Shown: positions 1,031 through 16,502 of the stretch, one piece after another
Layout of the letters: each line of letters begins with the position of its first letter
Position numbering within the stretch: the first letter of the stretch is position 1
From: Acutalibacteraceae bacterium
GTDB taxonomy: Bacteria > Bacillota > Clostridia > Oscillospirales > Acutalibacteraceae
DNA length: 64,000 nucleotides
Reading direction: 5' to 3'
Assembly: GCA_045543035.1 (NCBI GenBank)
Contig: JAZQMA010000055.1
Span: forward strand, 3,190-67,189
Made by a program: the position numbers and the translations under genes
The notes under the pieces: generated by a model
The model's input: only the letters and a program-made list of their open reading frames with translations
The model's database searches: none
What the model was told of the DNA's origin: nothing

Positions 1031-1032
1031 AA

Positions 1033-1068: not shown

Positions 1069-1074
1069 AGCTAT

Positions 1075-1212
1075 CAGTCGCCAGTCTCCAGCCCCCAGTT
1101 TCATATCAGATTATTTATTGTTCTATTTTTAATTTCAAATTAAGGTAAAAGTAAATTTACAATAACAAAGTTATTCCCACAATTCTGGCAGCTGGTAGCT
1201 GGCAACTGGCAT
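1075..1212. repeat. Heptamer-armed intergenic element (CAGNNNC x4 opposed by CTGGNAN x4)
   Basis: cagtcgc cagtctc cagcccc cagtttc at 1075-1102. Inverted ctggcag ctggtag ctggcaa ctggcat at 1185-1212. They bracket an AT-rich ~80-bp core. Confidence 0.6.
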
Positions 1213-1243
1213 CTAAAAAGGACTGCCTACGCAGTCCTTTTTC

Positions 1244-2122
1244 TTACATTCCAAGCATTGAAGCCAGCATGCCTTTTTTCTTTTCTTTTTTAGGTTTATA
1301 GAGAGGTGGATTTTCCAATCTCATTCTAGCACTTTTGCTCTTCTGAAGATATTTGATAATCTCACAAACAGGTTCACTCATTGTGTCGCTGAAATGCTCT
1401 TTAGCAACATCAACAAGCTCGGGATTTGCAGCAAGGGAGCAACCGAGAATTGTAACTGCAACTATGCTCTGAGTATCGTTTGTTCCGTCCTCATAAATAT
1501 CGTTAAGAAGCTTGAAAAGCTTTTTCATTTTTGCAGGGTCATTTTCGCGGATTGTTTCAACAACAACTGCATTACCGTGCTTTGTAAAGAAATCCTCAGC
1601 CAAAAACTCGCCATAATCTTCAAGATTCTTTTTATATTCTTCTCTGAGTTCGGGGTAAACAGTTGTAAATCTGCTTCCGAGTGTATTAGCATCGTAAGCA
1701 AGAGCACCGCTTTTTGCCTGGCTTCTTGAAACAGGAGTTGGAGCTTTTTTACCGCTATGAGCAGGTTTATGAGAGAAAAGCTTTTCAAATGTTTCGTTAT
1801 ATTCCTGGCAGATATATTTAATATCTTTTTCGTTGAATGTTTCAAGATCAAGAAGGCTCAATGATGCGCGGGGCATATCATCATCGGGAGTATCATCCTG
1901 TGTTTCCTTTGCGCAGTAAAGAGCTAATTTGCCGTTATCATATTCAATGCGAATTCTTCCTCTTTCACTGCGATACATAATAACGGATTTTCCGTTCACT
2001 TCTTCAACGGGAAGATTGGGAGGGAAAATACCATCGGGGTATTCAGGACGGAAACCATATTCAGTTGTTTTATCGCCTATACCTTTTATAATAAGTTCAA
2101 GGGCATTGTTAAGTTCAAGCAT
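1244..2122 (-). CDS. Conserved hypothetical protein
   Basis: A 292-aa ORF with a hairpin terminator at 1219-1243 just downstream on the minus strand. No motif recognised. Confidence 0.6.
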   Translation of the reverse strand: MLELNNALELIIKGIGDKTTEYGFRPEYPDGIFPPNLPVEEVNGKSVIMYRSERGRIRIEYDNGKLALYCAKETQDDTPDDDMPRASLSLLDLETFNEKDIKYICQEYNETFEKLFSHKPAHSGKKAPTPVSRSQAKSGALAYDANTLGSRFTTVYPELREEYKKNLEDYGEFLAEDFFTKHGNAVVVETIRENDPAKMKKLFKLLNDIYEDGTNDTQSIVAVTILGCSLAANPELVDVAKEHFSDTMSEPVCEIIKYLQKSKSARMRLENPPLYKPKKEKKKGMLASMLGM

Positions 2123-2196
2123 TTATAATACCTCACATTTATAATATACCTATATAATATAGCACATTGTTTCGGGTTTGTCACTACCTATTTTAA

Positions 2197-2447
2197 AAAT
2201 GCAGAATGCAGAATGCAAAATGCAAAATTAAGGGTGCTGCGCACAGCAATTATAAAAAAGTTAAAGAATTTAAGACATTCATTGTCCCGAATCATTTTTC
2301 TGTTATTGTGTTTAGTTGATTTAAAAGTAAGAAAGCTATTGTTTGAATAATTAATATAATGTTTGGAAGCGAAGCTTCCCCGATAATTCTGCATTCTGCA
2401 TTCTGCATTTTGCATTTTGCATTTTGCATTTTGCATTCCTCACTCCT
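2197..2447. repeat. Heptamer-armed intergenic element (AATGCAR arms in inverted orientation)
   Basis: AATGCAG/AATGCAA repeats at 2197-2228. Their reverse complement (ATTCTGC x3, ATTTTGC x4-5) lies at 2386-2447. The core ends with GGAAGCGAAGCTTCCCCGA, as in the 4745-4795 copy. Confidence 0.75.
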
Positions 2448-2455
2448 AACTAAAA

Positions 2456-2482
2456 AACCACCTCAATCGAGGTGGTTTTTTC
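2456..2482. terminator. Bidirectional rho-independent terminator
   Basis: AAAAAACCACCTC-AATC-GAGGTGGTTTTTT hairpin downstream of the minus-strand gene ending at 2501. Confidence 0.75.
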
Positions 2483-2500
2483 TATCTATTGTTCTTGCGA

Positions 2501-3571
2501 TTAAACTGTTTCTTTTTTCTTTCTTGTGAGAACGAACGCTGCAGAAGCTGCTACGCAGATTGTTGCTGCGAGAGCGATACCTACATCGCCTGTTTCTTCG
2601 GAACCCTGTGAAGAACCTTCAGCAGTTGTTTCGAGATTGGGAGCTGTTGTTGCAGGAGCTGTTGTTGCGGGAGCTTTTGTTTCATCATCGCCACCGAAGA
2701 GACCCATAAGGAAATCGATGATTTTATTAAGAAGCTCTTCAAAGAAGCTGAAGTCAATTCCAAGACTATCAAGAACATTCTTGAAGAGGTCTGAAATATC
2801 AACGTTACCGTCAACGAGCTGTTCGATAATATCTGTGATTTCTGCGTTACCGAGCATATTAGCGATAGCATCTGCAAAGTCTGCGAATGTTACGCCGTTG
2901 CCGTTAAGCAAATCTCTGATAAGGTCGAGAAGAACGTTAATATCAGAAGCGGAAGTATCGCCATCTGCAACGTCATCGCTTGAGGGCTCTGTTGTTTCGG
3001 GAATAACATCCTCGGGGAAGAGGAAGTTAACAACTTTATTTTCTACAAGAAGAGTTGATGTAACATCGTTTGCATCGTCGCCATCGTCGGTGCGGAACTC
3101 TTCAACATAAACATTGTAAGATGTTTCTGTTTTTGTTGTATCAATAACGCTGAATGTTATGTAGAAAATATCTCTTGCGCCATTCTTTGAAACACCGCTG
3201 TTTGAAATCCAACCGAAAGAATATTCGTTATCAGTACCGGTTTTGTAACCGTTAACAGCAATACCGTTAAAGAAAGCGTTGAAATTATCGTCTGCATCAT
3301 AAGAACCTGCAAGGTTTGCATCCTTAACAGCGAGAACTGCAGGGTCGAATGAAATGTAGAGGTTAACACCGGTGAGCTTTTTAACAGCAGGAACTGTAAC
3401 CGCAACGGTGAAAGTAGTTTTAGTAACAACATCTGTTCCTGAGTTGTTATTGTTGTATTTGCCCTCCATAACGCGAGTTGCGATACCGGGGTCAACAACT
3501 GCCGAACTCATCGGTGCGATACTGATACAGATGAGCAACGCAGAAAGAAAAATCGCAAGAACTTTTTTCAT
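2501..3571 (-). CDS. Cohesin-like domain surface protein with C-terminal membrane anchor
   Basis: Has a signal peptide and a beta-rich module (VNLYISFDPAVLAV...GWISNSG...FYITFSV) resembling cohesin domains. A Thr/Pro linker (APATTAPATTAP) and a C-terminal TM helix followed by RKKKE complete it. Confidence 0.5.
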   Translation of the reverse strand: MKKVLAIFLSALLICISIAPMSSAVVDPGIATRVMEGKYNNNNSGTDVVTKTTFTVAVTVPAVKKLTGVNLYISFDPAVLAVKDANLAGSYDADDNFNAFFNGIAVNGYKTGTDNEYSFGWISNSGVSKNGARDIFYITFSVIDTTKTETSYNVYVEEFRTDDGDDANDVTSTLLVENKVVNFLFPEDVIPETTEPSSDDVADGDTSASDINVLLDLIRDLLNGNGVTFADFADAIANMLGNAEITDIIEQLVDGNVDISDLFKNVLDSLGIDFSFFEELLNKIIDFLMGLFGGDDETKAPATTAPATTAPNLETTAEGSSQGSEETGDVGIALAATICVAASAAFVLTRKKKETV

Positions 3572-3820
3572 TAATATCTTCCTTTACTTGAAATTGAGGA
3601 AAAATCCTCTGCCACACAAGTGCGCATAGATATAGCATCACTTATAGCCTGCATTGATTATATTACAAATGGCACACAAAGTCAATAGATATTTTCCATT
3701 TATATAAGAAAAAATGCAAGTACTTTTTGCAACCCAAGCACCCGAAAACCCTTGTCCCATCAAGGATTTCCAACCATTCCGTCATTTTATACAAAATAAT
3801 GGGGTGTTTTTGTACAGTAT

Positions 3821-4346
3821 AAAATGCGGAGTGCGGAATGCGGAATGCGGAATTAGCTTCGCACACAACAATAAATCCTCCGCCCTTTTATATTTTTTTC
3901 AGATAATTCTTTTATCAATTGAGGGATATGGAGTGCGGAATTAGCTTCGCACACAACCACAAATCCTCCGCCCTTTTATATTTTTTTCAAATAATTCTTT
4001 TATCAATTGAGGGATATGGAATGCGGAATTAGCTTCGCACACAACCACAAATCCTCCGCCCTTTTATATTTTTTTCAGATAATTCTTTTATCAATTGAGG
4101 GATATGGAATGCGGAATTAGCTTCGCACACAACCACAAATCCTCCTCCCTTATTATATTTTTTCAGATAATTCTTTTATCAATTGAGGGATATGGAATGC
4201 GGAGTGCGGAATTAGCTTCGCACACAACCACAAATCCTCCGCCCTTTTATATTTTTTTCAGATAATTCTTTTATCAATTGAGGGATATGGAATGCGGAGT
4301 GCGGAATTAGCTTCGCACACATCTACAAATCCCCCCACCTTTACAT
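3821..4346. repeat. Tandem array, about 6 copies of an 88-bp unit (one unit is 95 bp)
   Basis: GAGGGATATGG recurs at 3921, 4009, 4097, 4185 and 4280. Every unit contains AATGCGGAATTAGCTTCGCACACAACCACAAATCCTCCGCCCTTTTATATTTTTTTCAGATAATTCTTTTATCAATTGAGGGATATGG. There are no unique spacers. Confidence 0.9.
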
Positions 4347-4347
4347 T

Positions 4348-4704
4348 TTATTTTTTAGATAAATCTTTCTTCGTGGTTTTGGTTATAGCAACTAAAAGAC
4401 TTATAACCTCATCCAAATCTTTATTAAGGCTTTCAAATTCTTGTTCTGTGAGATAATCATTAGCCTTCAAAAGTCTGAGCCAATAATTTGTTTCATTAGC
4501 CTCTTTTAGTGCAATTGTCATTTTCGCATAAAAATCAGATTTAGATTGACCTCTTTCTGCCTCTGAAACATTTGCACCTATGCTTGTCCCCGAACGTAAA
4601 ACCTGTCTTGAAACATCATATTCTTTCTTTTCATTAACCAAATAATCTTTTAATTTAAATATTCTAACCGCAAAATCAAAACTCTTAACTTCGATTACAT
4701 TCAT
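4348..4704 (-). CDS. Four-helix-bundle protein (23S rRNA intervening-sequence protein / Avd-fold family)
   Basis: 118 aa with QVLRSGTSIGANVSEAERGQSKSDFYAKMTIALKEANETNYWLRLL, the hallmark of the PF05635-type family. Confidence 0.85.
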   Translation of the reverse strand: MNVIEVKSFDFAVRIFKLKDYLVNEKKEYDVSRQVLRSGTSIGANVSEAERGQSKSDFYAKMTIALKEANETNYWLRLLKANDYLTEQEFESLNKDLDEVISLLVAITKTTKKDLSKK

Positions 4705-4744
4705 AAAGGAACTTATAACTTCCTTTCACTTTTAACTTTTATAT

Positions 4745-4795
4745 AATGTTCGGAAGCGGAGCTTCCCCGACATTCCGCATTCCGCATTCCGCATT
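4745..4795. repeat. Heptamer repeat arm (ATTCCGC x3-4) with GGAAGCGGAGCTTCCCCGA linker
   Basis: Inverted relative to the AATGCGG heptamers of the 3821-4346 array. It overlaps the stop codon of the 4794..7082 gene. Confidence 0.8.
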
Positions 4796-7082
4796 ATAAC
4801 TCTATATCTTCTATTTTTCCGTTAAACTTCTCAATCGCTCCGAATATTCTCTCTTTTAATTCCGAATTTCGAATTCCGAATTCCGAATTCTCTTTCGCAG
4901 GAAGTAAGAACACACCGATTGAACAGCTCTCTCCTATTTTCTCGGGTATCATTTTAACTGCTCCGCCATTGATTGTTCGCTTTGTGAACTTGCATTTTCT
5001 GTCGCAGTATTCACAAATCCATTCACTATCTTCAAAGGGTAACGGCGGATTTTTAAGAGTAGGCGCTTTAGTTGTCAACGCACCTGTGGGACAAACATTC
5101 ACACAAGCACCGCAGGAAATGCACTTACTATCACCCAAGGGCAAATCAAATGCACTCAAGGGCAATGTTCCGAAGCCTCTGCCGAAAAGACCGAGATTTT
5201 CAGTACCGCTTATTTCCTTACAAGCCCTTACACACTGACCGCAAAGAATACATTTATTGTTATCGCGGACAATAAAAGGATGGCTTTTATCTTTTGCGTA
5301 CTGCCTTGTTTTGCCGAAGATACCCGAAGCGAAAGCATCATAATCTCTTGCATAGGGCAAAAGCTCGCAGGAATAGACCGCAGAGCAACCGCATTCAAGG
5401 CATCTCTCTGCCTCTTTCATAGCCTCTTCTCTTGTAAAAGTGAAAGCCGCCTCGCTGAAATTCTTATTTCTGATATTTGCATCAACAAGCTTTACTTCAG
5501 CTCTGTCAATTTGTGGCATACCCTTTAAAACTTCAGGGTTAAAATTCTTATTCACGGAGTAATCGGGTAATTCGGGCGGAACGCTCACACCCTTGAACCA
5601 GCAGTCAATACTTCTTGCGGCATATTTACCGCCTGCAATTGCTCTGATTGCTATATCAGGACCTTTATTGATAACATCACCTGCGGCAAAAACGCCATCA
5701 ACAGATGTCATAAATGTTGTTTCATCAACGAAAATTGTTGATTTTTTTGTTAATTCAAGGCTATCAATATCACTGCCGACAACCTTCTGTCCGATAGCAG
5801 AAATAACAGAATCACATTCTATAATTTCTGTTGCACCTTCTATTGCAACAGGACTTCTTCTGCCACTTGCATCAGGTTCGCCAAGCTCCATTTTCTGAAC
5901 CTTAAGACCTGTAACCTTACCGTTTTCGCTTATAACCTCAACAGGTGCGCAAAGGAATTTGAACTGTACACCCTCTGCCCTTGCATCACGGATTTCATCA
6001 GGTTCAGCAGGCATTTCATTTTCAGTACGGCGGTAAATAAGATTAACCTCTTCTGCACCAAGTCTTACAGCAGTACGAACTGCATCAATAGCAGTGTTAC
6101 CGCCACCAACAACACAGACCTTTTTACCTAAATCAACCTTTTCACCTTTCGCAACCTTATAAAGCACATCAATGCCACCGAAAACGCCATCTGCATCTTC
6201 ACCGGGACATCTCATAGATGATGCACTCCATGCACCGATTGCAACGAAAACAGCATCAAAATCACCTTTAAGGGACTGAACTGTAAAATCTCTGCCAAGC
6301 CTTTTGTTATAATGGATCTGAACACCCATTTTTTCGATATTTTCAATCTCTTTATCGAGAATATCTTTAGGTAATCTATAAGCAGGAATACCGTAACGAA
6401 GCATTCCGCCACCCTTTTCCTCGCTTTCAAAAATCTCAACCGAATAGCCCTTCATTGCAAGGAAATATGCGCAGGAAAGTCCTGCAGGACCTGCACCGAT
6501 AATTGCAACTGTTTTGCCGTTTTTCTCTTCACAGGGTGGAATATAATCCATAAAGCTATCTGCCGCGAAACGTTTAAGAGCGCAGATAGAAACAGCACCT
6601 TCAAGATGAGCGCGACGGCATTTTTCCTCGCAAGGATGAGGACAAACTCTGCCTATTGAAGCAGGCAACGGGTTATCCTGTTTAATAATTTCAAGTGCTT
6701 TTTTCTCTTCACCGTTGGCAATAAGACCAACATAAGCCTGAATGTCCTGATGAGTAGGGCAAGCCATATAGCAGGGAGCTTTGCAGTCGCCTGCATGGTC
6801 GCTCATAATAACAGAAAGTGTCATTTTTCTGCTTTTTTCAAGCTCAGGAGTGCTTGTTGTAACGCGCATACCCTCGGTAACGGTTGTTGAACAAGCGCGA
6901 AGAGGCTTTCTTATACCCTCAACCTCAACAAGACAAAGTCCGCAACCGCCATAGCTTTCAAGCTCTTTGTTATGGCAAAGGTGGGGAAGATATATTCCGT
7001 TTTCCAAAATATTATCAAGAAGAGTTTTTTCTGTGTCTGCAAGGTATTCTTTGCCGTTGATTATGATTTTAACCGAACTCAT
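4794..7082 (-). CDS. Fusion of NuoG/HydA-N-terminal-like Fe-S domains with a GltD/NfnB-like FAD-NAD(P) oxidoreductase (StnC-like; no H-cluster)
   Basis: N-terminal 2Fe-2S ferredoxin-like fold (IINGKEY...GGCGLCLVEV), GAGPAGLSCAYFLA and VVGGGNTAID dinucleotide motifs, and C-terminal CxxCxxCxxxCP clusters. The hydrogenase L1-L3 motifs are absent. Confidence 0.8.
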   Translation of the reverse strand: MSSVKIIINGKEYLADTEKTLLDNILENGIYLPHLCHNKELESYGGCGLCLVEVEGIRKPLRACSTTVTEGMRVTTSTPELEKSRKMTLSVIMSDHAGDCKAPCYMACPTHQDIQAYVGLIANGEEKKALEIIKQDNPLPASIGRVCPHPCEEKCRRAHLEGAVSICALKRFAADSFMDYIPPCEEKNGKTVAIIGAGPAGLSCAYFLAMKGYSVEIFESEEKGGGMLRYGIPAYRLPKDILDKEIENIEKMGVQIHYNKRLGRDFTVQSLKGDFDAVFVAIGAWSASSMRCPGEDADGVFGGIDVLYKVAKGEKVDLGKKVCVVGGGNTAIDAVRTAVRLGAEEVNLIYRRTENEMPAEPDEIRDARAEGVQFKFLCAPVEVISENGKVTGLKVQKMELGEPDASGRRSPVAIEGATEIIECDSVISAIGQKVVGSDIDSLELTKKSTIFVDETTFMTSVDGVFAAGDVINKGPDIAIRAIAGGKYAARSIDCWFKGVSVPPELPDYSVNKNFNPEVLKGMPQIDRAEVKLVDANIRNKNFSEAAFTFTREEAMKEAERCLECGCSAVYSCELLPYARDYDAFASGIFGKTRQYAKDKSHPFIVRDNNKCILCGQCVRACKEISGTENLGLFGRGFGTLPLSAFDLPLGDSKCISCGACVNVCPTGALTTKAPTLKNPPLPFEDSEWICEYCDRKCKFTKRTINGGAVKMIPEKIGESCSIGVFLLPAKENSEFGIRNSELKERIFGAIEKFNGKIEDIEL

Positions 7083-8836
7083 TCTTCACCCTCCCCTGAA
7101 AGAATTTCTATTGCACCGAATTTGCAATTTTCAATACACTGACCGCAACGAACACAAGCTTCATTATCAATCTTATAAGGCGTTTTAATAACACCGCTTA
7201 TTGCGTTTACGGGGCATTTTTTACTGCAAAGGGAACAACCTTTACATTTTTCTGCAACTATGTTATAGCTTATCAATGCCGAGCATTTTTTTGCAGGGCA
7301 TTTTTTCTCTTTTATATGTGCTTCATATTCCTCGCGGAAATATTTTATGGTAGTTAAAACAGGGTTTGGCGCAGAGTTACCAAGACCGCAGAGCGCACCT
7401 GTTTTAATAGCCTCGCCAAGCTCTACGAGAGTTTCAATATCACTTTCCTGACCCTCGCCTTTTACAATTCTCTGGAGTATTTCGAGCATTCTTGTTGTAC
7501 CGATACGGCAGGGCACACATTTGCCACAGCTTTCTTTACTTGTGAAATCCATAAAGAATTTCGCCATATCAACCATACAGGTTTTCTCGTCCATAACAAT
7601 CATACCGCCCGAGCCCATAATAGCCCCTGTTTTTGCGATATTTTCATAGTCAATGGGAGTGTCAAGAAGTTTTTTCGGAATACAACCACCCGATGGACCG
7701 CCCATCTGAACAGCTTTAATTTCCGCATCGTCTTTAATTCCGCCACAGATACCGAAAACAATTTCATTAATTGTAAGTCCCATAGGAACTTCCACAAGTC
7801 CGCCTCGTTTTACGCGACCTGCAAGAGCAAAAACTTTAGTACCCTTACTGCCCTCTGTTCCCATTTCTGCAAATTTTTCGCCACCGTTTGCGATAATCCA
7901 GCTTACATTTGCAAAGGTTTCAACATTGTTGATATTAGTAGGCTTACCTCGGAAGCCTTTCTGAGCAGGGAATGGTGGTTTTGTTATAGGCATACCTCTG
8001 TTACCACCCAAGGATGCAAGAAGGGCGGTTTCTTCACCGCAAACGAATGCACCTGCACCCATCATAATACGGAAATCAAAGCAGAAGCCACTACCAAAAA
8101 TATTTTCGCCTAAAATACCTTTTTTGCGCATTTCTTCAATAGCAAGCTTAAGCCTTTTAACTGCAAGCGGGTATTCGGCACGAACATAAATAATACCCAT
8201 TTTCGCACCAACTGCAATACCCGAAATCATCATACCCTCAAGAACTCTGTGGGGGTCGCCCTCAAGAACAGCTCTGTCCATAAATGCACCCGGGTCGCCC
8301 TCGTCTGCATTACAGACAATATATTTTTCATCACCTGCAGAGTTTTTCGCAGACTGCCATTTGATATGAGTGGGGAAGCCTGCACCACCTCGACCGCGCA
8401 AGCCTGATTTTTTTATTTCTTCAATTATACCCTCAGAACCCAGCTCCAAAGCCTTTTTAAGAGCCTCATAACCGCCGTTTTCTATGTATGAATCAATGCT
8501 TTCAGGGTCGATTTTACCGCAACCTGAAAGGACAATTCTTTTCTGTCCCTTAAGGAAATTCAATTCTTCCTCTGTAAGTCGGTTTTCCTGCATAAGAGAG
8601 CCATTTTTAGCAGATGTAGCAAGAGCAATCGCGCTCTTTTCATCAAGGCGACCAAACAAAATGCTCTCCCCATCATCAGTTATAACCTCAACAATAGGCT
8701 CTGCAAAGCAAAGTCCGTTGCAACCAACCTTTTCAACTGTGAAATCTGTATTTTCAAAGACACTCTCAAGACCTTTGAGAACATTTTTAGCACCTGAAGC
8801 AATACCACAAGAGCCGTAACCTAAAAGAAATCTCAT
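7079..8836 (-). CDS. NuoF/HydB-like NADH-binding flavoprotein subunit
   Basis: GLRGRGGAGFPT FMN/NADH motif, a SLBB region and C-terminal 2x[4Fe-4S] (CKGCSLCSKKCP, CVRCGQCIENC). A 4-nt overlap with each neighbour suggests translational coupling. Confidence 0.85.
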   Translation of the reverse strand: MRFLLGYGSCGIASGAKNVLKGLESVFENTDFTVEKVGCNGLCFAEPIVEVITDDGESILFGRLDEKSAIALATSAKNGSLMQENRLTEEELNFLKGQKRIVLSGCGKIDPESIDSYIENGGYEALKKALELGSEGIIEEIKKSGLRGRGGAGFPTHIKWQSAKNSAGDEKYIVCNADEGDPGAFMDRAVLEGDPHRVLEGMMISGIAVGAKMGIIYVRAEYPLAVKRLKLAIEEMRKKGILGENIFGSGFCFDFRIMMGAGAFVCGEETALLASLGGNRGMPITKPPFPAQKGFRGKPTNINNVETFANVSWIIANGGEKFAEMGTEGSKGTKVFALAGRVKRGGLVEVPMGLTINEIVFGICGGIKDDAEIKAVQMGGPSGGCIPKKLLDTPIDYENIAKTGAIMGSGGMIVMDEKTCMVDMAKFFMDFTSKESCGKCVPCRIGTTRMLEILQRIVKGEGQESDIETLVELGEAIKTGALCGLGNSAPNPVLTTIKYFREEYEAHIKEKKCPAKKCSALISYNIVAEKCKGCSLCSKKCPVNAISGVIKTPYKIDNEACVRCGQCIENCKFGAIEILSGEGEE

Positions 8837-9348
8837 TTGCCTTCTGCCTCCCTTATAGAATTGATAATATCAGTTACCATATCGGGAGTAAGCTTTCCGT
8901 AAGCGGTATCGTTAATCATCATAGCAGGAGAAATACTGCAACAACCAAGGCAGGCAACCTCTTCCCATGAGAAGAGTCCGTCCTCGGTTACATCCCCTGC
9001 CTCAATGCCTAAAACACGTTTCACCGTGTCACCAACGCGCTCTGCACCGTTAACGTGACAAGCAGTACCCATACAGACCATTATTCTGTATTTACCAACG
9101 GGTTTAAGGCGAAAGCCTGCATAGAATGAGGCAACGCCCATAATTCTTGCAGAGGGTATTCCGCTTTTTTCTGTTATGTATTCAACGCTTTCTCTTGAAA
9201 TATAGCCATCAATCCCCTGAACATCCTGCAAAACTGCAATAAGACTTTCTTCAGGATTTTCATACTTTTCAAGTATCTCGTCAATTTGGCTCTTTTCAAT
9301 AGCCACAAAACCATCTCTTTTCACTGTGTTTGAAATAAAAATAATCAC
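8833..9348 (-). CDS. NuoE/HydC-like thioredoxin-fold [2Fe-2S] subunit
   Basis: CMGTACHVNG ... CLGCCS cysteine pattern. The start codon is uncertain (GTG at 9348 or GTG at 9306). Confidence 0.8.
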   Translation of the reverse strand: MIIFISNTVKRDGFVAIEKSQIDEILEKYENPEESLIAVLQDVQGIDGYISRESVEYITEKSGIPSARIMGVASFYAGFRLKPVGKYRIMVCMGTACHVNGAERVGDTVKRVLGIEAGDVTEDGLFSWEEVACLGCCSISPAMMINDTAYGKLTPDMVTDIINSIREAEGK

Positions 9349-9403
9349 TTTTCATTTTACTATATTAGTTTAAATCTTTCAATAGAAAATTTTATAAAAT
9401 GAA

Positions 9404-9540
9404 AAGTGCAAAACGCGAAACGCAAAGTGTCGGGTCTGCGACGCTATTATAAACGTAGGGAACGGATTTATCCGTTCCGCAAGAATATATGTAACCTGAT
9501 GCGGTACGCATAAATGCGTACCCTACTTTTGCATTTTCCA
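9404..9540. repeat. Composite repeat: heptamers, TCGGGTCTGCGACGC linker and double-hairpin element (9455-9526)
   Basis: gcaaaac gcgaaac gcaaagt, then TCGGGTCTGCGACGC, then GTAGGGAACGGATTTATCCGTTCCGC...GCGGTACGCATAAATGCGTACCCTAC, then ttttgcatttt. Confidence 0.8.
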
Positions 9541-9573
9541 TTATTATGTGTTAATATAGTTTTAGGTGATGAT

Positions 9574-10212
9574 ATGAAGAATTATAACTACTATTTATTC
9601 GATTTTGACGGTACGCTCTGCGACACAACCGAGGGTATTTTCAATTCAATTATTTATTCTCTTGACTGCTACGGAATTAAGGAGACCGATATAGAAAAAC
9701 TTCATTTTTTCGTAGGTCCTCCCCTTTTTGAAAGCTATAAAACAATCTATAACGTTTCCGATGAGGACGCTCAATGGTTAATTGATAAATACAGAGAGCG
9801 TTACAGAGTGAAAGCGGCGGAAGAATCAAAAATATATGAGGGTATCCCTCAGATGCTTGAAAGATTAAAAAAGGACGGCAAAAAAATCGCCGTCGCATCT
9901 TCAAAGCCTATTTATTTTGTTGAAGAAATTTCCAAATATCACGATATTTATAAATACTATGATTTTGTTTCCGCAGAGGATTTCAAAAACAATCATTCAA
10001 GCAAAAAGGATTTAATAAATGCCTGCCTTGATTTCTTTGGCAATCCCGATAAAAGCGAAATCATTATGGTTGGCGACCGTTGCTATGATATTGACGGTGC
10101 AAAGGCAGTGGGTCTTGACAGCGCAGGAGCAGTCTATGGCTTCGGCACTGCAGAGGAATTAACCCAATCGGGCGCGACATATCTCCTCAATTCGCCTGAA
10201 GAATTATATTGA
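9574..10212 (+). CDS. HAD-superfamily phosphatase (phosphoglycolate phosphatase-like)
   Basis: Motif I is LFDFDGTLCDT and the distal motif is VGDRCYDIDGA. I chose the ATG at 9574 rather than the track start at 9514. Confidence 0.75.
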   Translation: MKNYNYYLFDFDGTLCDTTEGIFNSIIYSLDCYGIKETDIEKLHFFVGPPLFESYKTIYNVSDEDAQWLIDKYRERYRVKAAEESKIYEGIPQMLERLKKDGKKIAVASSKPIYFVEEISKYHDIYKYYDFVSAEDFKNNHSSKKDLINACLDFFGNPDKSEIIMVGDRCYDIDGAKAVGLDSAGAVYGFGTAEELTQSGATYLLNSPEELY

Positions 10213-10250
10213 AAATTCGGAATTCGGAATTCGAAATTAGCTTCGCAAGG
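10213..10250. repeat. Heptamer repeat (AATTCGG x3) with TAGCTTCGCAAGG linker
   Basis: aattcgg aattcgg aattcga aattagcttcgcaagg immediately after the HAD stop. A perfect 20-bp palindrome ACCTCTCTTCGAAGAGAGGT lies at 10285-10304. Confidence 0.75.
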
Positions 10251-10352
10251 AGTAAAGACAGAAAAATAAAGTTGATGTATGGGTACCTCTCTTCGAAGAG
10301 AGGTTAGGACACGCCTTTACTTTTTTCGTTAAATATACTTGCGAGCTACTTT

Positions 10353-11453
10353 TCAGAAACAAGTTCCGCAGGTTGTGTAGCCTTGTGAATATAAATCATC
10401 AATTGAACCGCTGTAGTTCTGTTTGTTACTTTCGTTCATTCGGTTTATATGATGACAATGGGTTTTATGGATTTTCTTTGTATTTGTGTTTAAAACATAT
10501 TGTCCCGTAATAACATTTTGTTGCTTTGTGGTTTCAACCTGTTTTTTTGTTGTTTCAACAGGTGCAACAACTTTTTTTGTTGTTTCCTTGTTACTTTCAC
10601 TCGCCCGGCTTCTGCCCGTTGTATAATCAATTTTAACTCCGGGCTGAACATTATAGCAGAAAACATTAAAGCAGATGCCCTCACCATCATCCTCAACAGA
10701 ATAGGCTTCCATCTGAACACCCTTTGCAACAAGGTCGTTGCCATCATAAACAGGAGTAATTCTGTATGCAACGTGATTATCAGTTTCGCGGATATAGTCG
10801 GCAACCATATTCTCAAAGGGCAACATACCCTCGGTGTTCATATATCTTGTTCCGGTAATAAGGTTTCTCTTGTTCGCATTTTCTGCAGATAACTGCCATC
10901 CGATTAAATGGCAACGGTTGTAAAGATATTTGCCTGAAACACTGTCATATTGCGCCTGAACCCAACCGCTTGGCTTTACTGCACTGATACTGCCTCTTTC
11001 CTCTTCAGGTTTCGGCATAATCTCTCTTCCGCAGGATGCAACCGCACCACCGCAACGACCGAATTTATCAAGAGAAGCATAGGTTTCATAACCCTTTGTT
11101 GTCAGCTCATATTTATTGAAAGAGGGAATATTATCATTGATAACAACATAAGGTCTGCCCGAATATTCAGGAATTTCTGATAATACTGCCTTACTGTTAT
11201 CATCCCCAACGCTATCGGGTTTGCTTACCTTTTGAGTTTCTTTTTCGGTTTTTTCTTCTGCTTTTTCAGTTTCCGAGCTGTCGGTTATAGCTTCGGTTTC
11301 ATTTTCTGTTATCTGACTTTCAATTGTTGTTTCAATAATTTCCGTTGTAGTTTCGTCAGATTGTTCAGAACCGCAACCTGCAAAAGAAGAAAGCAAAACC
11401 GCAACCAAACAAAGAATTGATAAAAGTGATTTTAATTTTTGATTAAATTTCAT
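10353..11453 (-). CDS. Secreted lipoprotein, DNA/RNA non-specific endonuclease (EndA/NucA-like)
   Basis: Lipobox LSSFAGCGS and an acidic linker. The nuclease core is YNRCHLIGWQLSAENANKRNLITGTRYMN...YRITPVY. The C-terminus is Cys/His-rich. Confidence 0.75.
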   Translation of the reverse strand: MKFNQKLKSLLSILCLVAVLLSSFAGCGSEQSDETTTEIIETTIESQITENETEAITDSSETEKAEEKTEKETQKVSKPDSVGDDNSKAVLSEIPEYSGRPYVVINDNIPSFNKYELTTKGYETYASLDKFGRCGGAVASCGREIMPKPEEERGSISAVKPSGWVQAQYDSVSGKYLYNRCHLIGWQLSAENANKRNLITGTRYMNTEGMLPFENMVADYIRETDNHVAYRITPVYDGNDLVAKGVQMEAYSVEDDGEGICFNVFCYNVQPGVKIDYTTGRSRASESNKETTKKVVAPVETTKKQVETTKQQNVITGQYVLNTNTKKIHKTHCHHINRMNESNKQNYSGSIDDLYSQGYTTCGTCF

Positions 11454-11457
11454 TTTA

Positions 11458-11859
11458 TCACCTTGAATAAATTTCTAATGTAATTTTATCGTGGGAGTTC
11501 CCTTGGAATTCCTCTTTTTTTATTCTCTTAAAGCCCTCTGCCTTGAGGTCAACATTAAAGAACAAATCTCCCGGGTACTTTCTGTTCCAGTTAAAAACAT
11601 AAAAGCTCTCAACGTTTTCAGCGGTAATCTCTTTATCTTCAACAAAGCAGAAATCACCCTGCTCCGCATTGTTCAGAAAATCATCGTCAATAATAATATT
11701 TTCAGCATTTTCAAATTGTTTGGCAGAATATGAGTTCATCAAAAGCCTCCCTGCACTTGAAATTTCAAAAATTTTTTCTCTCAGAACTCTGTCCTGGCTC
11801 TGCCTCTTGCCACAAAAGCTCATACCATTATTTTTATCAACGCAAACAATTATGTTCAT
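11458..11859 (-). CDS. Conserved hypothetical protein (133 aa)
   Basis: Start chosen at MNIIVCVDKNNG, which has an AAAGGAGTGG Shine-Dalgarno. The upstream part of the track ORF reads through repeat DNA. Confidence 0.55.
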   Translation of the reverse strand: MNIIVCVDKNNGMSFCGKRQSQDRVLREKIFEISSAGRLLMNSYSAKQFENAENIIIDDDFLNNAEQGDFCFVEDKEITAENVESFYVFNWNRKYPGDLFFNVDLKAEGFKRIKKEEFQGNSHDKITLEIYSR

Positions 11860-11878
11860 TAAACCACTCCTTTTGAAG

Positions 11879-12057
11879 CTACCAGTCGCCAGCAAATAGC
11901 AAATAGCCAATAGTAAAATATCGCGAAGCCTATCCCTCTTTTTTGCTTGCAAAAAGGAGGGGGGACCGTGTCAGCGGTGGTGGGTAGGACCCCTGCCATC
12001 CCATTTGTAAAACTACCGCGAAGCTTAATTCCGCATTCCGCATTCCGCATTCCGCAT
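11879..12057. repeat. Heptamer-armed element (CCAG/CAAATAG heptamers on the left, ATTCCGC x4 on the right)
   Basis: accag tcgccag caaatag caaatag ccaatag on the left. The core has GCGAAGCC and GCGAAGCTTAATT linkers and a CCCTCTTTTTTGC/GCAAAAAGGAGGG hairpin. The right arm overlaps the hydF 3' end. Confidence 0.7.
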
Positions 12058-13230
12058 TACTTGAACGCTTCGTTCAAGTATCCCACTCATCTTCGCAATC
12101 GCAACACCATAGTTCACCATAGGAACACCCTGCTCATTTGCAAGGTTCATTCTATGCTTCATTTCTTTTTCATTAAGGGTGCAACCGCCACAATGAACAA
12201 TAAGAGAAAACTCTCTTAAATCCTGCGGAAACTCTCCACCAGATGTAAAGCTGAATTGGGGTTCAGCATTAGTGAATTTTCTAATCATATTAGGAATTTT
12301 GACTGTTCCTATATCGTTGCATTGTCTGTGATGGGTACAACCCTCGCTGATGAGAATTCTGTCACCATCTTTGATTTCAGCAAGCTTTTCTGCACCGTTT
12401 ATAAGGGTTGAAAGCTCGCCCTTATATCTTGCCATAAGAATTGAAAAAGAGGTAAGCAGAATATCATCGGGCACAATTTCAGAAACCTTGCCGAAAATCT
12501 GAGAATCGGTTATAACCAACTTTGGTTTCTTCGCAAGGGCATTTAAAGCATCGGTAAGTTCCGTGTCCTGACAAGCAACAACAGTACAGTTTCCGTCCAA
12601 TAAATCGCGGATTGTCATTTGTTGGGGCAGAATAAGTCTGCCCTTGGGTGCAGCCTCGTCAATGGGAATAACAAGAACAACAATGTCGCCTTTTTCCACT
12701 AAATCAGAAACCACATATTTTTTCTTTTCGGCAGTTTTTGAAAGACTGCCGATTTTCTCTTTCAGTTCAAAAATATTGATATTGTCAACTGCACTAACAT
12801 AAATTTCATTATCTTTTAATTCTGACTTTTCCCCGAGCAATTCGCATTTATTGAAAGCGATAATATATGGAATGTTTCTCTTTTTAAAAGCCTCAATTAA
12901 TTCTTCATCACCCTTTGAAGTACCTTTGAGGGCATCAACAACAAGTATTGCCACATCAGTTTTCGCGAGAATTTCGTTAGTCTTTTCAACTCGCTTTTCA
13001 CCAAGGTAGCCTTCATCATCAAAGCCGGGAGTGTCAATTATAACAACAGGGCCTAAAGGCAGTAATTCCATAGCCTTTTTTACAGGGTCGGTGGTTGTTC
13101 CCTTTACATTGGAAACAACCGAAAGGCTCTGCCCCGTAACCGCATTCACAAGGCTTGATTTACCTGCATTTCTCATACCGAAAAAGCCGATATGCACTCT
13201 TTCGGCAGAAACAGTTTCATTCAAACTCAT
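12025..13230 (-). CDS. hydF: [FeFe]-hydrogenase maturation GTPase HydF
   Basis: GMRNAGKSSLVNA P-loop, DTPG, and the C-terminal CTHHRQC...HCGGC cluster motif. The last ~10 codons (MRNAECGMRN) are encoded by the heptamer repeat. Confidence 0.9.
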   Translation of the reverse strand: MSLNETVSAERVHIGFFGMRNAGKSSLVNAVTGQSLSVVSNVKGTTTDPVKKAMELLPLGPVVIIDTPGFDDEGYLGEKRVEKTNEILAKTDVAILVVDALKGTSKGDEELIEAFKKRNIPYIIAFNKCELLGEKSELKDNEIYVSAVDNINIFELKEKIGSLSKTAEKKKYVVSDLVEKGDIVVLVIPIDEAAPKGRLILPQQMTIRDLLDGNCTVVACQDTELTDALNALAKKPKLVITDSQIFGKVSEIVPDDILLTSFSILMARYKGELSTLINGAEKLAEIKDGDRILISEGCTHHRQCNDIGTVKIPNMIRKFTNAEPQFSFTSGGEFPQDLREFSLIVHCGGCTLNEKEMKHRMNLANEQGVPMVNYGVAIAKMSGILERSVQVMRNAECGMRN

Positions 13231-13248
13231 AGATTTTCACCTGCTAAA

Positions 13249-14697
13249 TTAAAATCTGAAATCTCGTCTGTTGGAATTTTTAATGTCACAAATATTGCTC
13301 TGGGCAATTTCTCTTACCTTATCTTTAGGAATTTTTTTCAATTCCTCTTCAATAAGCTTGTAACCGATTTCCTTTGTTTCGGGTGAAGCATAGTCCTCAA
13401 GATATTCTGTAAGTGTCATAAGAGCATTTGGATGGCAGCAGTTAAGAATCTGACCTGATTTGCAAAGGCTCATAAAGCGGTCGCCTGTTCTGCCCTCTCT
13501 GTAGCAAGCAGTGCAGAATGAGGGAATATGACCGTTTTCCATAAGCCAACGAACAACCTCATCAAGAGTTCTCTGGTCGGAAACATCAAATTGCTCGGAA
13601 TCGTGGGGGCGTTCTTCTTCAGTATAACCGCCAACAGATGTACGGGAAGCACCGCTGATCTGTGAAATACCGAGATGGAGCGCCTCTCCTCTTACCTTCT
13701 CGCTTTCGCGGGTAGAAATAATCATACCTGTGTAAGGAACTGCAATTCTGATACAAGCAATAATTTTCTTGAACATTTCATCACTGATACCGTTATCAAA
13801 TGCATCGGGGTCGATGTCGTCCGCTCTCTTAAGACGGGGCACACTGATAGTGTGAGGTCCAACACCGTGCACCGCTTCAAGATGCTCCGCGTGCATAAGA
13901 AGACCGATAAATTCATACATATATCTCTCAAGACCGAAAAGAACGCCAAGACCAACATCATCAATGCCGCCCTCCATAGCTCTGTCCATAGCCTCTGTAT
14001 GATAGTCATAATCGTGCTTAGGTCCTGTGGGATGAAGCTCAAGGTAGCTTTCTTTATGATATGTTTCCTGGAAAAGAATGTATGTACCGATACCTGCATC
14101 CTTGAGCTTTCTGTAGTTCTCAACAGTAGTAGCGGCAATATTTACATTAACTCGTCTTATTGCACCGTTTTTGTGGTTAACGCTGTAAATGGTTTTGATA
14201 CATTCAAGAATATATTCAATAGGATTGTTTTTGGGGTCTTCACCTGCTTCTATAGCAAGGCGCTTGTGACCCATATCCTGCAAAGCAATAACCTCTGCTT
14301 TAACCTCTTCCTGAGTTAATTTCTTACGTGCGATATGCTTGTTTTTCAGGTGATAAGGACAATATACGCAACCGTTCACGCAGTAGTTTGAAAGGTACAA
14401 AGGCGCAAACATAACAATTCTGTTGCCGTAAAAATCCTGCTTGATCTGATTTGCAAGAGCAAACATTTCCTCAACCTTTTCGGGAATATCGCAAGCAAGA
14501 AGCACTGCCGCATCTCTGTGAGAAAGACCTGTGCAATGAAGTCCGTTCCCCTCTTTTTGGGGTCTTGCCTTTTCAAGAATACTGTCAATAAGCTCGATAT
14601 TATTCTTGTTTTCCTCTGCATATTTTATTGTTTCAAGAATTTCACCATCGTGAATAAATTCTTCTGCTTTAAGTGATTTTGGATTGTAAATTGACAT
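13249..14697 (-). CDS. hydG: [FeFe]-hydrogenase maturation radical SAM enzyme HydG
   Basis: CVNGCVYCPY radical SAM motif, ThiH-like length (482 aa) and C-terminal CTACYREGRTGDRF motif. Confidence 0.9.
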   Translation of the reverse strand: MSIYNPKSLKAEEFIHDGEILETIKYAEENKNNIELIDSILEKARPQKEGNGLHCTGLSHRDAAVLLACDIPEKVEEMFALANQIKQDFYGNRIVMFAPLYLSNYCVNGCVYCPYHLKNKHIARKKLTQEEVKAEVIALQDMGHKRLAIEAGEDPKNNPIEYILECIKTIYSVNHKNGAIRRVNVNIAATTVENYRKLKDAGIGTYILFQETYHKESYLELHPTGPKHDYDYHTEAMDRAMEGGIDDVGLGVLFGLERYMYEFIGLLMHAEHLEAVHGVGPHTISVPRLKRADDIDPDAFDNGISDEMFKKIIACIRIAVPYTGMIISTRESEKVRGEALHLGISQISGASRTSVGGYTEEERPHDSEQFDVSDQRTLDEVVRWLMENGHIPSFCTACYREGRTGDRFMSLCKSGQILNCCHPNALMTLTEYLEDYASPETKEIGYKLIEEELKKIPKDKVREIAQSNICDIKNSNRRDFRF

Positions 14698-14727
14698 AAT
14701 AAAAATTCCTTTCTGAAACCTTATACT

Positions 14728-14797
14728 GTAGGGAACGGATTTATCCGTTCCGCAAACTCATCAAAAACTTGGCGGTACGCATAAATGCGTACCCTAC
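14728..14797. repeat. Double-hairpin element, copy 2
   Basis: GTAGGGAACGGATTTATCCGTTCCGC-20 nt-GGCGGTACGCATAAATGCGTACCCTAC, between hydG and hydE. Confidence 0.85.
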
Positions 14798-14817
14798 GTT
14801 GCTCAAACCAACTAATT

Positions 14818-15867
14818 TTATATTCCTGCAACATCTCCACGTGCAACAACAATTTCATACCCAATACTTCCCATTTTCTTTTTTAGTTCTGCTATATGAA
14901 AAGCATTTTCCACACCAGTATTGAGTTTGTTGTTATATAATTCATATTTTTTCCTTGCGCTTTCAGGCGACAAATTCGGCATAACAACATTCGCACCCGA
15001 GAGAATTCCTTTTTCTCTTCCGTCATTTTTTACTGTGCCAAGTGCCGTTGTGGCAGGCAACAGAATATTGGGGTGGATTAATCTTATAATTGAAAGCAGG
15101 TAGCAGGTCAAATCTGCAGACCCTGCGCTTTCATTTCTGAAAACTGTATCTTTATGGGGAATAAAAGGTCCTATTCCGCACATATCAGGCTTGAATTCTT
15201 CAATAAATTTCAAATCCTTTGCAATATGCTTTATAGTTTGGTATGGTGCACCTACCATAAAACCGCAACCCACCTGATAGCCGATTTCTTTAAGATTTTT
15301 AAGGCATTCCATTCGATTTTCAAAGGACATTTCTTGGGGATGCAATTTTTCATAAAGCTCTTTATCAGCGGTTTCGTGGCGGAGAAGGTATCTGTCCGCA
15401 CCTGCATCAAATAGCCTTTGATAACTCTCTTTGCTTCGCTCACCTAATGAAAGAGTAACCGCGCAATCAGGGAATTTCTCTTTGATTTTTTCTATTAAAT
15501 CGCAAAGTATATCATCGGTATAAAATCCATCCTCGCCACCTTGCATAACAAAGGTACGAAAACCTAAATCATACCCATCTATGCAACACTCTATAATTTC
15601 CTCAGGAGTTAAACGGTATCTCTGACAATTCTCGTTACCGCCTCTGATGCCGCAATACAAACAGTTGTTTTTACAGATATTGCTGATTTCAATAAGTCCG
15701 CGGACAAAAACCTGATTACCGTAAACAGATTTACGGACTTTGACCGCATTTTCTCTCAAATATTGCGCAATTTCAGGTGAATATCCCTCAACCAGCTTCT
15801 CATACTCGGCAAGCGTAAGAGAATGAGCTTCAACAAGCTTCTGCGCAATATTATATATTCTATTCAT
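14818..15867 (-). CDS. hydE: [FeFe]-hydrogenase maturation radical SAM enzyme HydE
   Basis: CKNNCLYCGIR motif, BioB-like TIM barrel, 349 aa, in a hydE-hydG-hydF gene context. Confidence 0.9.
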   Translation of the reverse strand: MNRIYNIAQKLVEAHSLTLAEYEKLVEGYSPEIAQYLRENAVKVRKSVYGNQVFVRGLIEISNICKNNCLYCGIRGGNENCQRYRLTPEEIIECCIDGYDLGFRTFVMQGGEDGFYTDDILCDLIEKIKEKFPDCAVTLSLGERSKESYQRLFDAGADRYLLRHETADKELYEKLHPQEMSFENRMECLKNLKEIGYQVGCGFMVGAPYQTIKHIAKDLKFIEEFKPDMCGIGPFIPHKDTVFRNESAGSADLTCYLLSIIRLIHPNILLPATTALGTVKNDGREKGILSGANVVMPNLSPESARKKYELYNNKLNTGVENAFHIAELKKKMGSIGYEIVVARGDVAGI

Positions 15868-16135
15868 CGCTTTTCACATTTGATAGCACGGTTTTCGCGC
15901 TTATTCCTTTAAGATTACCGATTTTACCGCTTAAAGCGGAAATCACATCCTGAGGCGCATCAATTGCAACACTTATAAGATTTATTTCCCTTTGCCGATA
16001 GGGAATACCCATTCTTCCGATAATATATTCACCGTAGTTATGCAAAATTGTGTTAAGCTCTGAAACACTCTCGCCATTTTCAACAATAATGCTTATAACA
16101 CCAACTCTTGAAGCCACGCCATTCACCTTCTTCAT
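15860..16135 (-). CDS. TM1266-family iron-only hydrogenase system regulator (ACT-like)
   Basis: 91 aa, RVGVISIIVEN...IIGRMGIPY...ISVAIDAP. It overlaps the hydE start by 8 nt. Confidence 0.8.
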   Translation of the reverse strand: MKKVNGVASRVGVISIIVENGESVSELNTILHNYGEYIIGRMGIPYRQREINLISVAIDAPQDVISALSGKIGNLKGISAKTVLSNVKSDE

Positions 16136-16175
16136 AAAATAAAAATACCATACCCGGATATAATAAGGGTACGGT

Positions 16176-16365
16176 AAAATGCAAAATGCAAAATGCAGAA
16201 TGCAAAATTTCGGGTCTGCGACGCAATTAAAAATTTATTCTTTATTATTTTTTCTTTCTTCTTTATTCTTTTGCAATTTTTAAAGAACAGATAATAAATA
16301 ATAAAGAAGAACTAATAAATGCTTACGAAGCTTCATTCCGCATTCCGCATTCCGCATTCCGAATT
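16176..16365. repeat. Heptamer-armed element (AATGCAA/AATGCAG on the left, ATTCCGC on the right)
   Basis: The left arm at 16176-16209 is followed by TCGGGTCTGCGACGC. The right arm at 16334-16365 is preceded by GAAGCTTC. Confidence 0.75.
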
Positions 16366-16502
16366 AATTTCTTCCGTCCCTTATTTTCAGGAGAACAACG
16401 CCCCTTCACGTCAGGTACATATTGTGGATTTATTATACAATATATTTTAAAAATAATCAATGAATATAAAGTAAATTTCAGACAAAAATAAAAACAATAA
16501 AT

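Follow-up and report, generated by a model that had tools for sequence, protein, structure and literature searches.

The closest described relatives of the DNA considered here are the intervening sequences (IVSs) of 23S rRNA genes, known from Leptospira and Coxiella and in a Xanthomonas type; their inverted flanks pair into a long stem, and its loop holds an open reading frame (ORF) of the PF05635 family that encodes the four-helix-bundle protein S23p (Ralph & McClelland 1993, cited in PMC3936711; PMC4990558). The IVS of Coxiella carries tandem GACAGAT heptamers upstream of its S23p ORF in a copy number that varies between strains, its excision by RNase III begins at the first repeat, and older proposals hold IVSs to be mobile; the same paper quotes a description of XCC0516 as a homopentameric toroid (Warrier et al. 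2016, PMC4990558). Heptanucleotide repeats have a literature of their own: each Xanthomonas genome holds 186 intergenic GGGAATC-type repeats, most of four units and 70 in inverted, convergent pairs, and the authors who counted them noted a heptamer over-representation that lacked detailed literature, found no link to mobile elements and did not mention the four-helix-bundle gene, their repeats being GGGAATC and GGGGAYT of Xanthomonas and Nostoc (Rehm et al. 2015, PMC4692102). A Geobacter genome paper treats heptanucleotide repeat families as putative regulatory sites (PMC2700814), and a survey of cas genes reports 23S_rRNA_IVP genes within cas loci (PMC3936711). Our literature search found no paper that brings these observations together, and no description of heptamer arrays as a general hallmark of the IVS family. 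Here we analyze a 64,000-nucleotide stretch of an Acutalibacteraceae genome (contig JAZQMA010000055.1; the window), in the first 19 kb of which tandem heptamers form the arms of small elements, one of them with an S23p gene between its arms. With a probability of roughly 0.75, these arrays are the arms of IVS-type foldback elements that parasitize host transcription units and whose stem is either removed from the RNA or neutral in it.

Seven elements (E1–E7) lie in these 19 kb, one complete and six reduced or broken; all are intergenic or in gene ends, and none is in a 23S rRNA helix (helix 25 or 45). The initial annotation of this DNA had listed a series of heptamer arrays, and each is present at its stated coordinates, as judged from the sequence and from Tandem Repeats Finder (TRF), which starts period-7 arrays at 1185, 2196, 2386, 3823, 4771, 4858, 10214, 11891, 12028, 16176 and 16334; the one at 4858–4890 had been overlooked. 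A strict periodicity scan of the window returns eight period-7 arrays of at least three units, all within 1–18860, and no array of at least three units at periods 4–6 or 8–12. With laxer settings there are ten period-7 arrays in 18.86 kb (0.53 per kb) versus none in the other 45.1 kb, which bears out the remark that no copy occurs in the foreign DNA past 18.86 kb. That almost every intergenic gap carries an array is true of seven of about ten gaps longer than 60 nt but not of the gap between hydE and hydG. All three linkers said to recur do so exactly: AATTAGCTTCGC seven times (six within the 88-bp units described below, the seventh at 10235), GGAAGCGRAGCTTCCCCGA twice (2365 and 4752) and TCGGGTCTGCGACGC twice (9430 and 16210). 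With the linkers conserved, and the 7-nt period and inverted arms persisting while the heptamer varies by locus, this is a genuine repeat family. The initial annotation could not assign it to a named family; it can be placed in the 23S rRNA IVS/S23p four-helix-bundle element family, here outside rRNA, and one copy has the gene.

That copy, E3 (3823–4890), contains a 118-aa ORF (4348–4704, minus strand) that the initial annotation had missed. Its product is a four-helix-bundle protein (23S rRNA intervening-sequence protein, S23p) that matches PF05635 (E 3e-27) and TIGR02436, 'four helix bundle protein' (E 6e-30), and, in the PDB, 2RLD (E 3.5e-37) as well as XCC0516/2GSC, each an entry with five chains; the other six elements have no such ORF. 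On the gene strand, E3 reads (AATGCGG)n arm, GGGGAAGCTCCGCTTCC, ribosome-binding site, ORF, 3' tail, GCGAAGCTAATT and complementary arm. The 5' side (4705–4795, minus strand) consists of the ribosome-binding region, the linker GGGGAAGCTCCGCTTCC, which is a small palindrome, and an arm of 3.6 AATGCGG units, found by inspection and by the periodicity scan, that overlaps with the stop codon of the host gene lying upstream. The 3' side (3823–4347, minus strand) is made of six tandem 88-bp copies of the 3' end module, each comprising the 3' untranslated tail, a GCGAAGCTAATT linker and a CCGCATT-type arm (TRF: 3842–4368, 5.1–5.8 copies, 91–93% match). The AATGCGG arm (4771–4795) and the CCGCATT arm in every 88-bp unit are exact complements.

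Comparison with close relatives, that is, syntenic contigs (L201–L206) with HydF 89–94% identical to that of the window, dates part of this structure. The 88-bp array is a recent amplification, because the orthologous loci in L201 and L203 have one 3' module only. Six such units in a row are open to misreading as CRISPR-like; we rejected a CRISPR array because the units are near-identical throughout, lack unique spacers and are single in the orthologues. A second, outer arm of 4.7 AATTCGG units (4858–4890, minus strand; TRF and periodicity scan) lies in the 3' coding end of a gene for a GltD-like hydrogenase subunit and is translated in frame as 11 codons (ENSEFGIRNSE). In L201, which has the element at the same site with a 92%-identical S23p gene, AATGCGG units occupy the position of the outer arm (ENAECGVRNAE) and are followed by a conserved 20-aa tail. 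An exact-sequence look-up of the window proteins matched no record, and an Rfam scan of 1–19000 (E ≤ 1) gave no match overlapping the elements and no rRNA. Most close homologues of the S23p protein are known solely from contigs of 0.5–1 kb, which fits short-read assemblies breaking at flanking arrays, and some of the called homologues begin within arrays (for example, MRNAKCEARN...).

The link between gene and arrays extends far beyond the window. A metagenome scan with an alignment of homologues yielded 80 loci, in which period-7 arrays reach 2.82 per kb within 200 bp of the gene versus 0.12 per kb beyond 400 bp (23-fold), and arrays of period 5, 6, 8, 9 or 10 near the gene number approximately zero. 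At least one array lies within 200 bp of 48 of the 67 evaluable genes; 22 genes have arrays on both sides, 17 of these with the same unit inverted, and the flanked fraction is higher by eye, the strict detector missing degenerate arrays. The best ungapped stems of 63 loci comprise 1887 Watson–Crick pairs versus 213 mismatches, and their heptamers differ widely (AATGCAA, GAGTGCT, ACAATTG, AATTCAA, AGGTAAA and others). Three loci (L127, L141 and L165) are genuine bacterial large-subunit rRNA genes by Rfam that carry the element in sense orientation; classical IVSs therefore have the same arms. A tblastn search of plasmids gave 33 records, and all ten that were fetched for inspection have four-helix-bundle genes flanked by heptamer arrays. 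Their hosts, Nostoc, Anabaena, Planktothrix, Pseudanabaena, Gloeocapsa, Euhalothece, Treponema, Bernardetia and Chlorohelix, belong to Cyanobacteriota, Spirochaetota, Bacteroidota and Chloroflexota. In Xanthomonas, the orthologue of the crystallized XCC0516, located between accB and accC, is likewise flanked by GGGAATC-type heptamers.

A repeat confined to this host, as the initial annotation had proposed, is refuted by the distribution of the arrays themselves. In a scan of one genome per species, (ATTCCGC)3 occurs in at least 120 contigs from about ten phyla, and arms flank PF05635 genes in all sampled groups. Among the matches listed are Acidobacteriota, Planctomycetota, Verrucomicrobiota, Chloroflexota, Bacteroidia, Clostridia, Nitrospirota, Gemmatimonadota, Proteobacteria, one cyanobacterium and one archaeon; the majority consist of a short inverted pair and lack an ORF, and four have the gene exactly between the arms. 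The gene is, therefore, not at every array: phmmer and an iterated hidden Markov model recovered only those four four-helix-bundle genes from the 120 listed loci.

Where the gene is present, it points the same way as the long ORF upstream of it in 57 of 63 loci (p 1.6e-11) and shares the orientation of the downstream ORF in 41 of 55. Between the stop codon of the upstream ORF and the S23p start lies a median of 47 nt, little beyond the length of an arm. Because this leaves no room for a promoter, expression by read-through is most likely, as reasoned by analogy. S23p genes stand within conserved operons in the arrangements cas2-x-cas1, helicase-x-N6 methylase and DUF1156-x-HEPN (plasmids L208 and L212–L215), and accB-x-accC is found across Xanthomonas species (L217/L220). 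The published 'associations' of the S23p family with CRISPR-Cas and defence loci may be parasitic insertions.

A complete element comprises an arm of about four to five heptamers (NNN-A-R-T-K inward), a short linker, the S23p gene, a second linker and a complementary arm. Such elements lie inside host transcription units or directly behind them, in the orientation of the upstream gene, and read-through would most likely serve to express S23p. By pairing of its arms, the transcript would form a long, perfect stem that RNase III could cleave, as it does in rRNA IVSs, and by that analogy the stems are probably cut out by this enzyme. If the host RNA on both sides stayed functional after cleavage, insertions in rRNA helices, operon junctions and gene ends would be tolerated. 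Slippage and exchange between copies would account for locus-specific heptamers, for mismatched chimeric arms and for tandem amplification such as the 88-bp array, and it is plausible that the ORF-less copies are derivatives by internal deletion. We infer that the elements are selfish.

The arms follow rules of their own. In the subfamily of the window gene, the unit reads NNN-A-R-T-K, with A at a frequency of 0.98, R as A (0.74) or G (0.23), T at 0.95 and K as T (0.60) or G (0.39); the heptamer logo contains 6.05 bits of information versus 3.94 for shuffled units (maximum, 4.20). Polarity is fixed, such that NNN-A-R-T-K runs 5' to 3' inward from either end, and a complementary arm within 40 nt lies on the inner side in 23 cases versus the outer side in 2. 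Array length is unimodal with a peak at 31–34 nt (about four to five motifs), sub-peaks at 24–25 and 18–19 nt and a sharp drop above 40 nt. A weaker A-R-T core of the same polarity occurs in 16 of 23 gene-flanking arms of diverse clades, against a chance expectation of 0.21, and the published Xanthomonas consensus GGGANTN conforms to this core (PMC4692102). We rejected A-R-T-K as a universal motif, as bystander arrays of high-GC phyla show it in 6 of 36 cases (10% expected), and also the linkers as universal, since GCGAAGC/GCTTCGC stands beside only 8 of 278 arrays in other lineages and is subfamily-specific. The GCGAAGC contained in the linkers is a motif that forms a very stable DNA mini-hairpin. 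A role of the arrays as suppliers of stop codons in three frames was likewise discarded: AATGCGG and AATTCGG are stop-free in all frames, and HydF reads through one array.

A tentative idea, to which we give odds clearly against, is that the heptamer arrays are binding sites of their own S23p protein. The approximately five A-R-T(K) motifs of an arm, spaced by 7 nt with 3-nt free spacers, would wrap one homopentameric ring, possibly as single-stranded RNA or DNA with one motif per subunit, in the manner of TRAP, which binds spaced GAG triplets. Binding of an arm by a pentamer would explain the invariant period, the four conserved and three variable positions and the preferred arm length. S23p could then regulate its own translation, given that the 5' arm ends at its start codon; alternatively, it could assemble into a nucleoprotein responsible for moving the element, perhaps together with a reverse transcriptase, as for Avd in diversity-generating retroelements. 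Should this be true, one protein–repeat system would have left the heptanucleotide excess of many bacterial genomes as its footprint. A pentameric ring encoded between arms of about five motifs is a striking coincidence that we offer as a hypothesis rather than a finding.

Three of the remaining window copies, E1, E2 and E7, are elements of 138–252 bp with paired arms and no ORF with a family match. E1 (1075–1212, no strand assigned) is of a CCAG type and sits between convergent genes; its left arm reads CAGTCGC/CAGTCTC/CAGCCCC/CAGTTTC and its right arm CTGGCAG/CTGGTAG/CTGGCAA, and the arm pair folds as RNA with a z-score of −4.35 (1068–1218). E2 (2196–2447, minus strand), detected by TRF and the scan, pairs 4.7 units of AATGCAR with 7.6 of the complement (2190–2452; RNA fold z −6.5 for the plus strand, −5.8 for the minus), and its inner ends agree with the gene-bearing element's linkers, its linker being identical to the L201 5' linker over 25 of 25 nt. 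E7 (16176–16365, minus strand), seen by TRF and in the sequence, lies upstream of the hyd maturation operon and joins AATGCAA-type and ATTCCGC arms to the linkers TCGGGTCTGCGACGC and ACGAAGCTTC.

The initial annotation had seen in E7 a hint of structure at the RNA level, in that its arms pair fully only as minus-strand RNA through G-U wobble. For this copy the description is accurate: the fold of 16170–16370 has −44.0 kcal/mol on the plus strand versus −58.7 on the minus strand, and pairing is continuous only on the latter, via G-U. The pattern amounts to two homogenized transitions and could be due to chance, and as a general signal it is unsupported. Because a perfect inverted repeat folds alike on both strands, only transition mismatches tell the strands apart; across the 63 gene-bearing elements, the ungapped count on the sense strand is 50 G-U versus 64 A-C (18 loci versus 21). 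A bias of duplex energies toward the sense strand (49:25) is something we attribute to base composition, and we dropped the claim of pairing in RNA only.

The other three copies are damaged or irregular. E4 (9404–9546, minus strand) is a mini-element of an arm, the linker GCGTCGCAGACCCGA and an arm remnant (9531–9546), split by a GTAG-headed palindromic repeat pair inserted at 9455–9530; its array at 9404–9428 is itself weak. E5 (10213–10246, plus strand; TRF and sequence) is a single arm of 3.6 AATTCGG units with the linker AATTAGCTTCGC and no partner arm, and it begins directly after the stop codon of the HAD gene. E6 (11886–12058, minus strand), read from the sequence, is an insertion between hydF and the next gene with an arm of 4.4 AATGCGG units, two GCGAAGC linkers and a far arm of CAAATAG type that is non-complementary; the arms at 11886 and 12027, which had been listed together, do not pair (RNA fold z +0.47 for 11878–12062). 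The array at 12028–12058 encodes the last 10 codons of HydF (MRNAECGMRN; ...VQVMRNAECGMRN*), and HydF orthologues vary accordingly in length, from 392 to 401 aa. The E6 core (11920–12027) is bounded by direct copies of CGCGAAGC and has a G/C-rich segment (GGGTCCTACCCACCACC...), partly common to the larger insertion of L204/L205.

The host is a spore-forming member of the Clostridia (SpoVAC/SpoVAD, HydEFG) with relatives named Ruminococcaceae or Clostridia. Across the close relatives, elements are gained, lost and replaced and their arms exchanged at a rapid pace, which is the pattern to be expected if the repeats are selfish. Comparison of presence and absence among them, which had been suggested at the outset, reveals both polymorphism and replacement. 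An E1-type element with conserved inner ends (GCCAGAATTGTG...AAACTGGGGGCTGG) occupies a different site in L203/L204, and the spacer after the 356-aa gene, home of E2 in the window, holds a CCAG-type element of the E1 family in these two contigs. An E2-type element that aligns end to end is found in L206 in a different spacer, between the endonuclease and HAD genes; it is complete there, in the spacer where the window has only E5. E4 is intact (115 nt: arm, 5'-type linker, 3'-type linker, arm) at the same HAD–nuoE spacer in L203, L204 and L206, and at the E7 site the outer boundaries are identical, with different arms and cores. The junction of hydF and orf133 is empty in L203/L206, where stop and start overlap as TAATG, and filled in the window (231 nt) and L204/L205 (359 nt), where TAATG stands at each of the two junctions. 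In L202, a 96%-identical S23p gene lies in the hydE–hydG spacer, beside a 96%-identical HydG, where the window has only a GTAG-type palindromic repeat and no heptamer element.

That spacer (14698–14817 in the window; L202–L206) is hypervariable, with five states in five close relatives: one retains a 60-nt remnant, another has a 299-nt element, a third an unrelated ATGAAGTA-type repeat, a fourth a GTAG-type repeat and the last a complete four-helix-bundle element. The GTAG-headed palindrome pairs (GTAGGGTACGCATTTATGCGTACC ... GGAACGGATTTATCCGTTCCCTAC), which resemble doublets of repetitive extragenic palindromic (REP) sequences, or REPINs, occur three times in 19 kb (9455–9530, 14728–14797 and 16503–16580).

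This turnover bears on whether the arrays could instead serve the host as operon punctuation, that is, as processing sites, 3'-end stabilizers or terminators that adjust how strongly neighbouring genes are expressed relative to each other, with the S23p gene as an occasional passenger. Arrays do adjoin stop codons and occur between genes of the same direction, every paired copy folds much better than its shuffled controls, and the Xanthomonas accB–accC copy is fixed across species. A conserved signal should not, however, leave orthologous spacers of close relatives empty or filled with other elements or arms, and E2 is already preceded by a canonical terminator hairpin. Elements are also found in rRNA helices, in coding ends and in divergent promoter regions, and the tight link to one protein family would be left unexplained. 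We, therefore, regard a host-serving role as unlikely.

Still less probable is that the short copies are classical MITEs (miniature inverted-repeat transposable elements), moved by a transposase encoded elsewhere that acts on subrepeated terminal inverted repeats by cut-and-paste and leaves target-site duplications. The MITE-like layout noted in the initial annotation holds insofar as the short copies resemble non-autonomous relatives, being small, intergenic, bounded by terminal inverted repeats and polymorphic in presence, and one clean insertion has TAATG at both junctions; no transposase-encoding partner and no consistent target-site duplication were found. The sole gene ever found inside the arms encodes a four-helix bundle of 110–130 aa with no known catalytic motif or transposase domain, and arm sequence, which a sequence-specific transposase would need, is not conserved among copies of one genome. 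As for duplicated target sites, TAATG stands at both junctions of one empty/filled pair, the hydF spacer; no second clean pair was found, and TAATG is also an operon stop/start overlap motif. Independent origin at each locus as slipped-strand microsatellites or G-quadruplex or contingency repeats, to which strain-variable copy number and array expansion (the 88-bp array; Coxiella strains) and the reading of Xanthomonas GGGAATC repeats as G-quadruplex formers (PMC4692102) might point, is very improbable, given enrichment at period 7 only, inverted pairs with fixed polarity and conserved linkers, an array length that is unimodal at 31–34 nt rather than geometric, window units (AATGCGG, AATGCAA and AATTCGG) without G-tracts beyond GG and a 23-fold concentration of arrays beside one gene family.

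Several points weigh against reading the arrays as arms of IVS-type elements that live in host transcripts. The elements come with no transposase, no reverse transcriptase and no other enzyme known to confer mobility, and our confidence in any specific mobility mechanism is far below that in their identity and life-style. The TAATG site is a single clean empty/filled pair, and differential loss or recombinational replacement could explain part of the polymorphism. RNase III cleavage and read-through are argued from analogy, and the sense strand shows no excess of G-U over A-C, so that pairing at the DNA level could matter equally. ORF-less cores have only linkers in common with the gene-bearing element, some arms, as in E6, are non-complementary, and the A-R-T-K motif is not universal in the heptamer arrays of high-GC phyla.

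The DNA beyond the last array belongs to a different element. An insert of conjugative type, at least 45 kb long, interrupts spoVAD (18230–64000 in the window) with a junction near 18860–18870, past which GC content is lower; the match of the SpoVAD ORF to its family ends at residue 213 of 329, and the gene is intact in L203/L204 (337-aa SpoVAD). Genes for a MobL relaxase, TraG/VirB4-like and VirB11-like ATPases, a C5 cytosine methylase and a large surface protein give the insert the look of an integrative conjugative or mobilizable element. SpoVAD of L206 is truncated at the same place, with other cargo (a TIR/GAF protein). The site may be that of a sporulation-gene intervening element or an insertion hot spot. 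Within the insert, a 243-bp tandem repeat at 47161–47709 (2.3 copies, 71% match) lies in a 1485-aa ORF (45781–50238) with Listeria–Bacteroides repeat domains; this repeat belongs to the foreign element and has no relation to the heptamers.

Both IVS elements and heptamer repeats have been described before, and their unity as a pan-bacterial class of elements seems to have gone undescribed so far. Three puzzles seem to reduce to a single phenomenon: how rRNA IVSs arose and spread and what their conserved S23p ORF does, open since the early 1990s; the over-representation of heptanucleotides in many bacterial genomes; and the scattered 'four helix bundle protein' genes in operons, including cas and restriction–modification loci. 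If so, thousands of annotated four-helix-bundle genes and uncounted heptamer arrays would make up one very widespread selfish class, and the CRISPR-Cas 'association' of S23p genes would become parasitic insertion. Arrays would be expected to break short-read assemblies, to extend ORF calls and to fuse to the C-termini of host proteins. A biochemical hypothesis would also arise, in which a pentamer binds five spaced motifs.

Among known systems, the cyanobacterial short tandemly repeated repetitive (STRR) sequences were reportedly described as heptanucleotide repeats of Calothrix and Nostoc by Mazel et al. in 1990. Their canonical units, CCCCAGT, TTGGTCA and CAACAGT, are known from heterocystous cyanobacteria. 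As in the window, STRR heptamers are tandem and dispersed in intergenic DNA, and the cyanobacterial plasmid copies of the present family carry STRR-like units such as CTGGTCA; the canonical units are, however, absent from the window, the units of which are AATGCGG, AATGCAA, AATTCGG and CCAGNNN in a Clostridia host. Foldback (FB) transposons of Drosophila and other eukaryotes have long inverted repeats made of tandem subrepeats of 10–31 bp; many copies consist of arms only, some have a coding loop, and they are prone to rearrangement and arm exchange and have transposase-like ORFs. The likeness is an architectural analogy only, as FB transposons are eukaryotic, much larger and non-homologous.

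REP sequences and REPINs share with the window elements short intergenic inverted pairs, very high copy number and the same spacers. They are defined by a GTAG or CGTC head, a fixed palindrome and a REP-associated tyrosine transposase (RAYT, HUH-type) as partner (PMC3116915, PMC3733652), whereas the heptamer elements have neither a REP head nor a fixed palindrome, and a separate family in the window does have GTAGGG...CCCTAC (9455, 14728 and 16503). PF05635 proteins resemble Avd, the accessory protein of diversity-generating retroelements (PMC10053308): both are small four-helix bundles, and each entry of the solved relatives, 2RLD and 2GSC, has five chains. The S23p gene of the window is accompanied neither by a reverse transcriptase nor by a template or variable repeat, and Avd was not detected in the PDB by sequence profile. 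The Xanthomonas consensus GGGANTN has an A-x-T core in common with window-type units, and repeats of this kind flank the XCC0516 orthologue; unlike the heptamers of Xanthomonas and Nostoc, the units of the window are AT-rich and cannot form G-quadruplexes. Closest of all are the 23S rRNA IVSs, which like E3 have a PF05635 ORF in the loop of a long stem; the window copies differ from them in lying in spacers, operon junctions and gene 3' ends, in being mostly ORF-less and in numbering seven in 19 kb.

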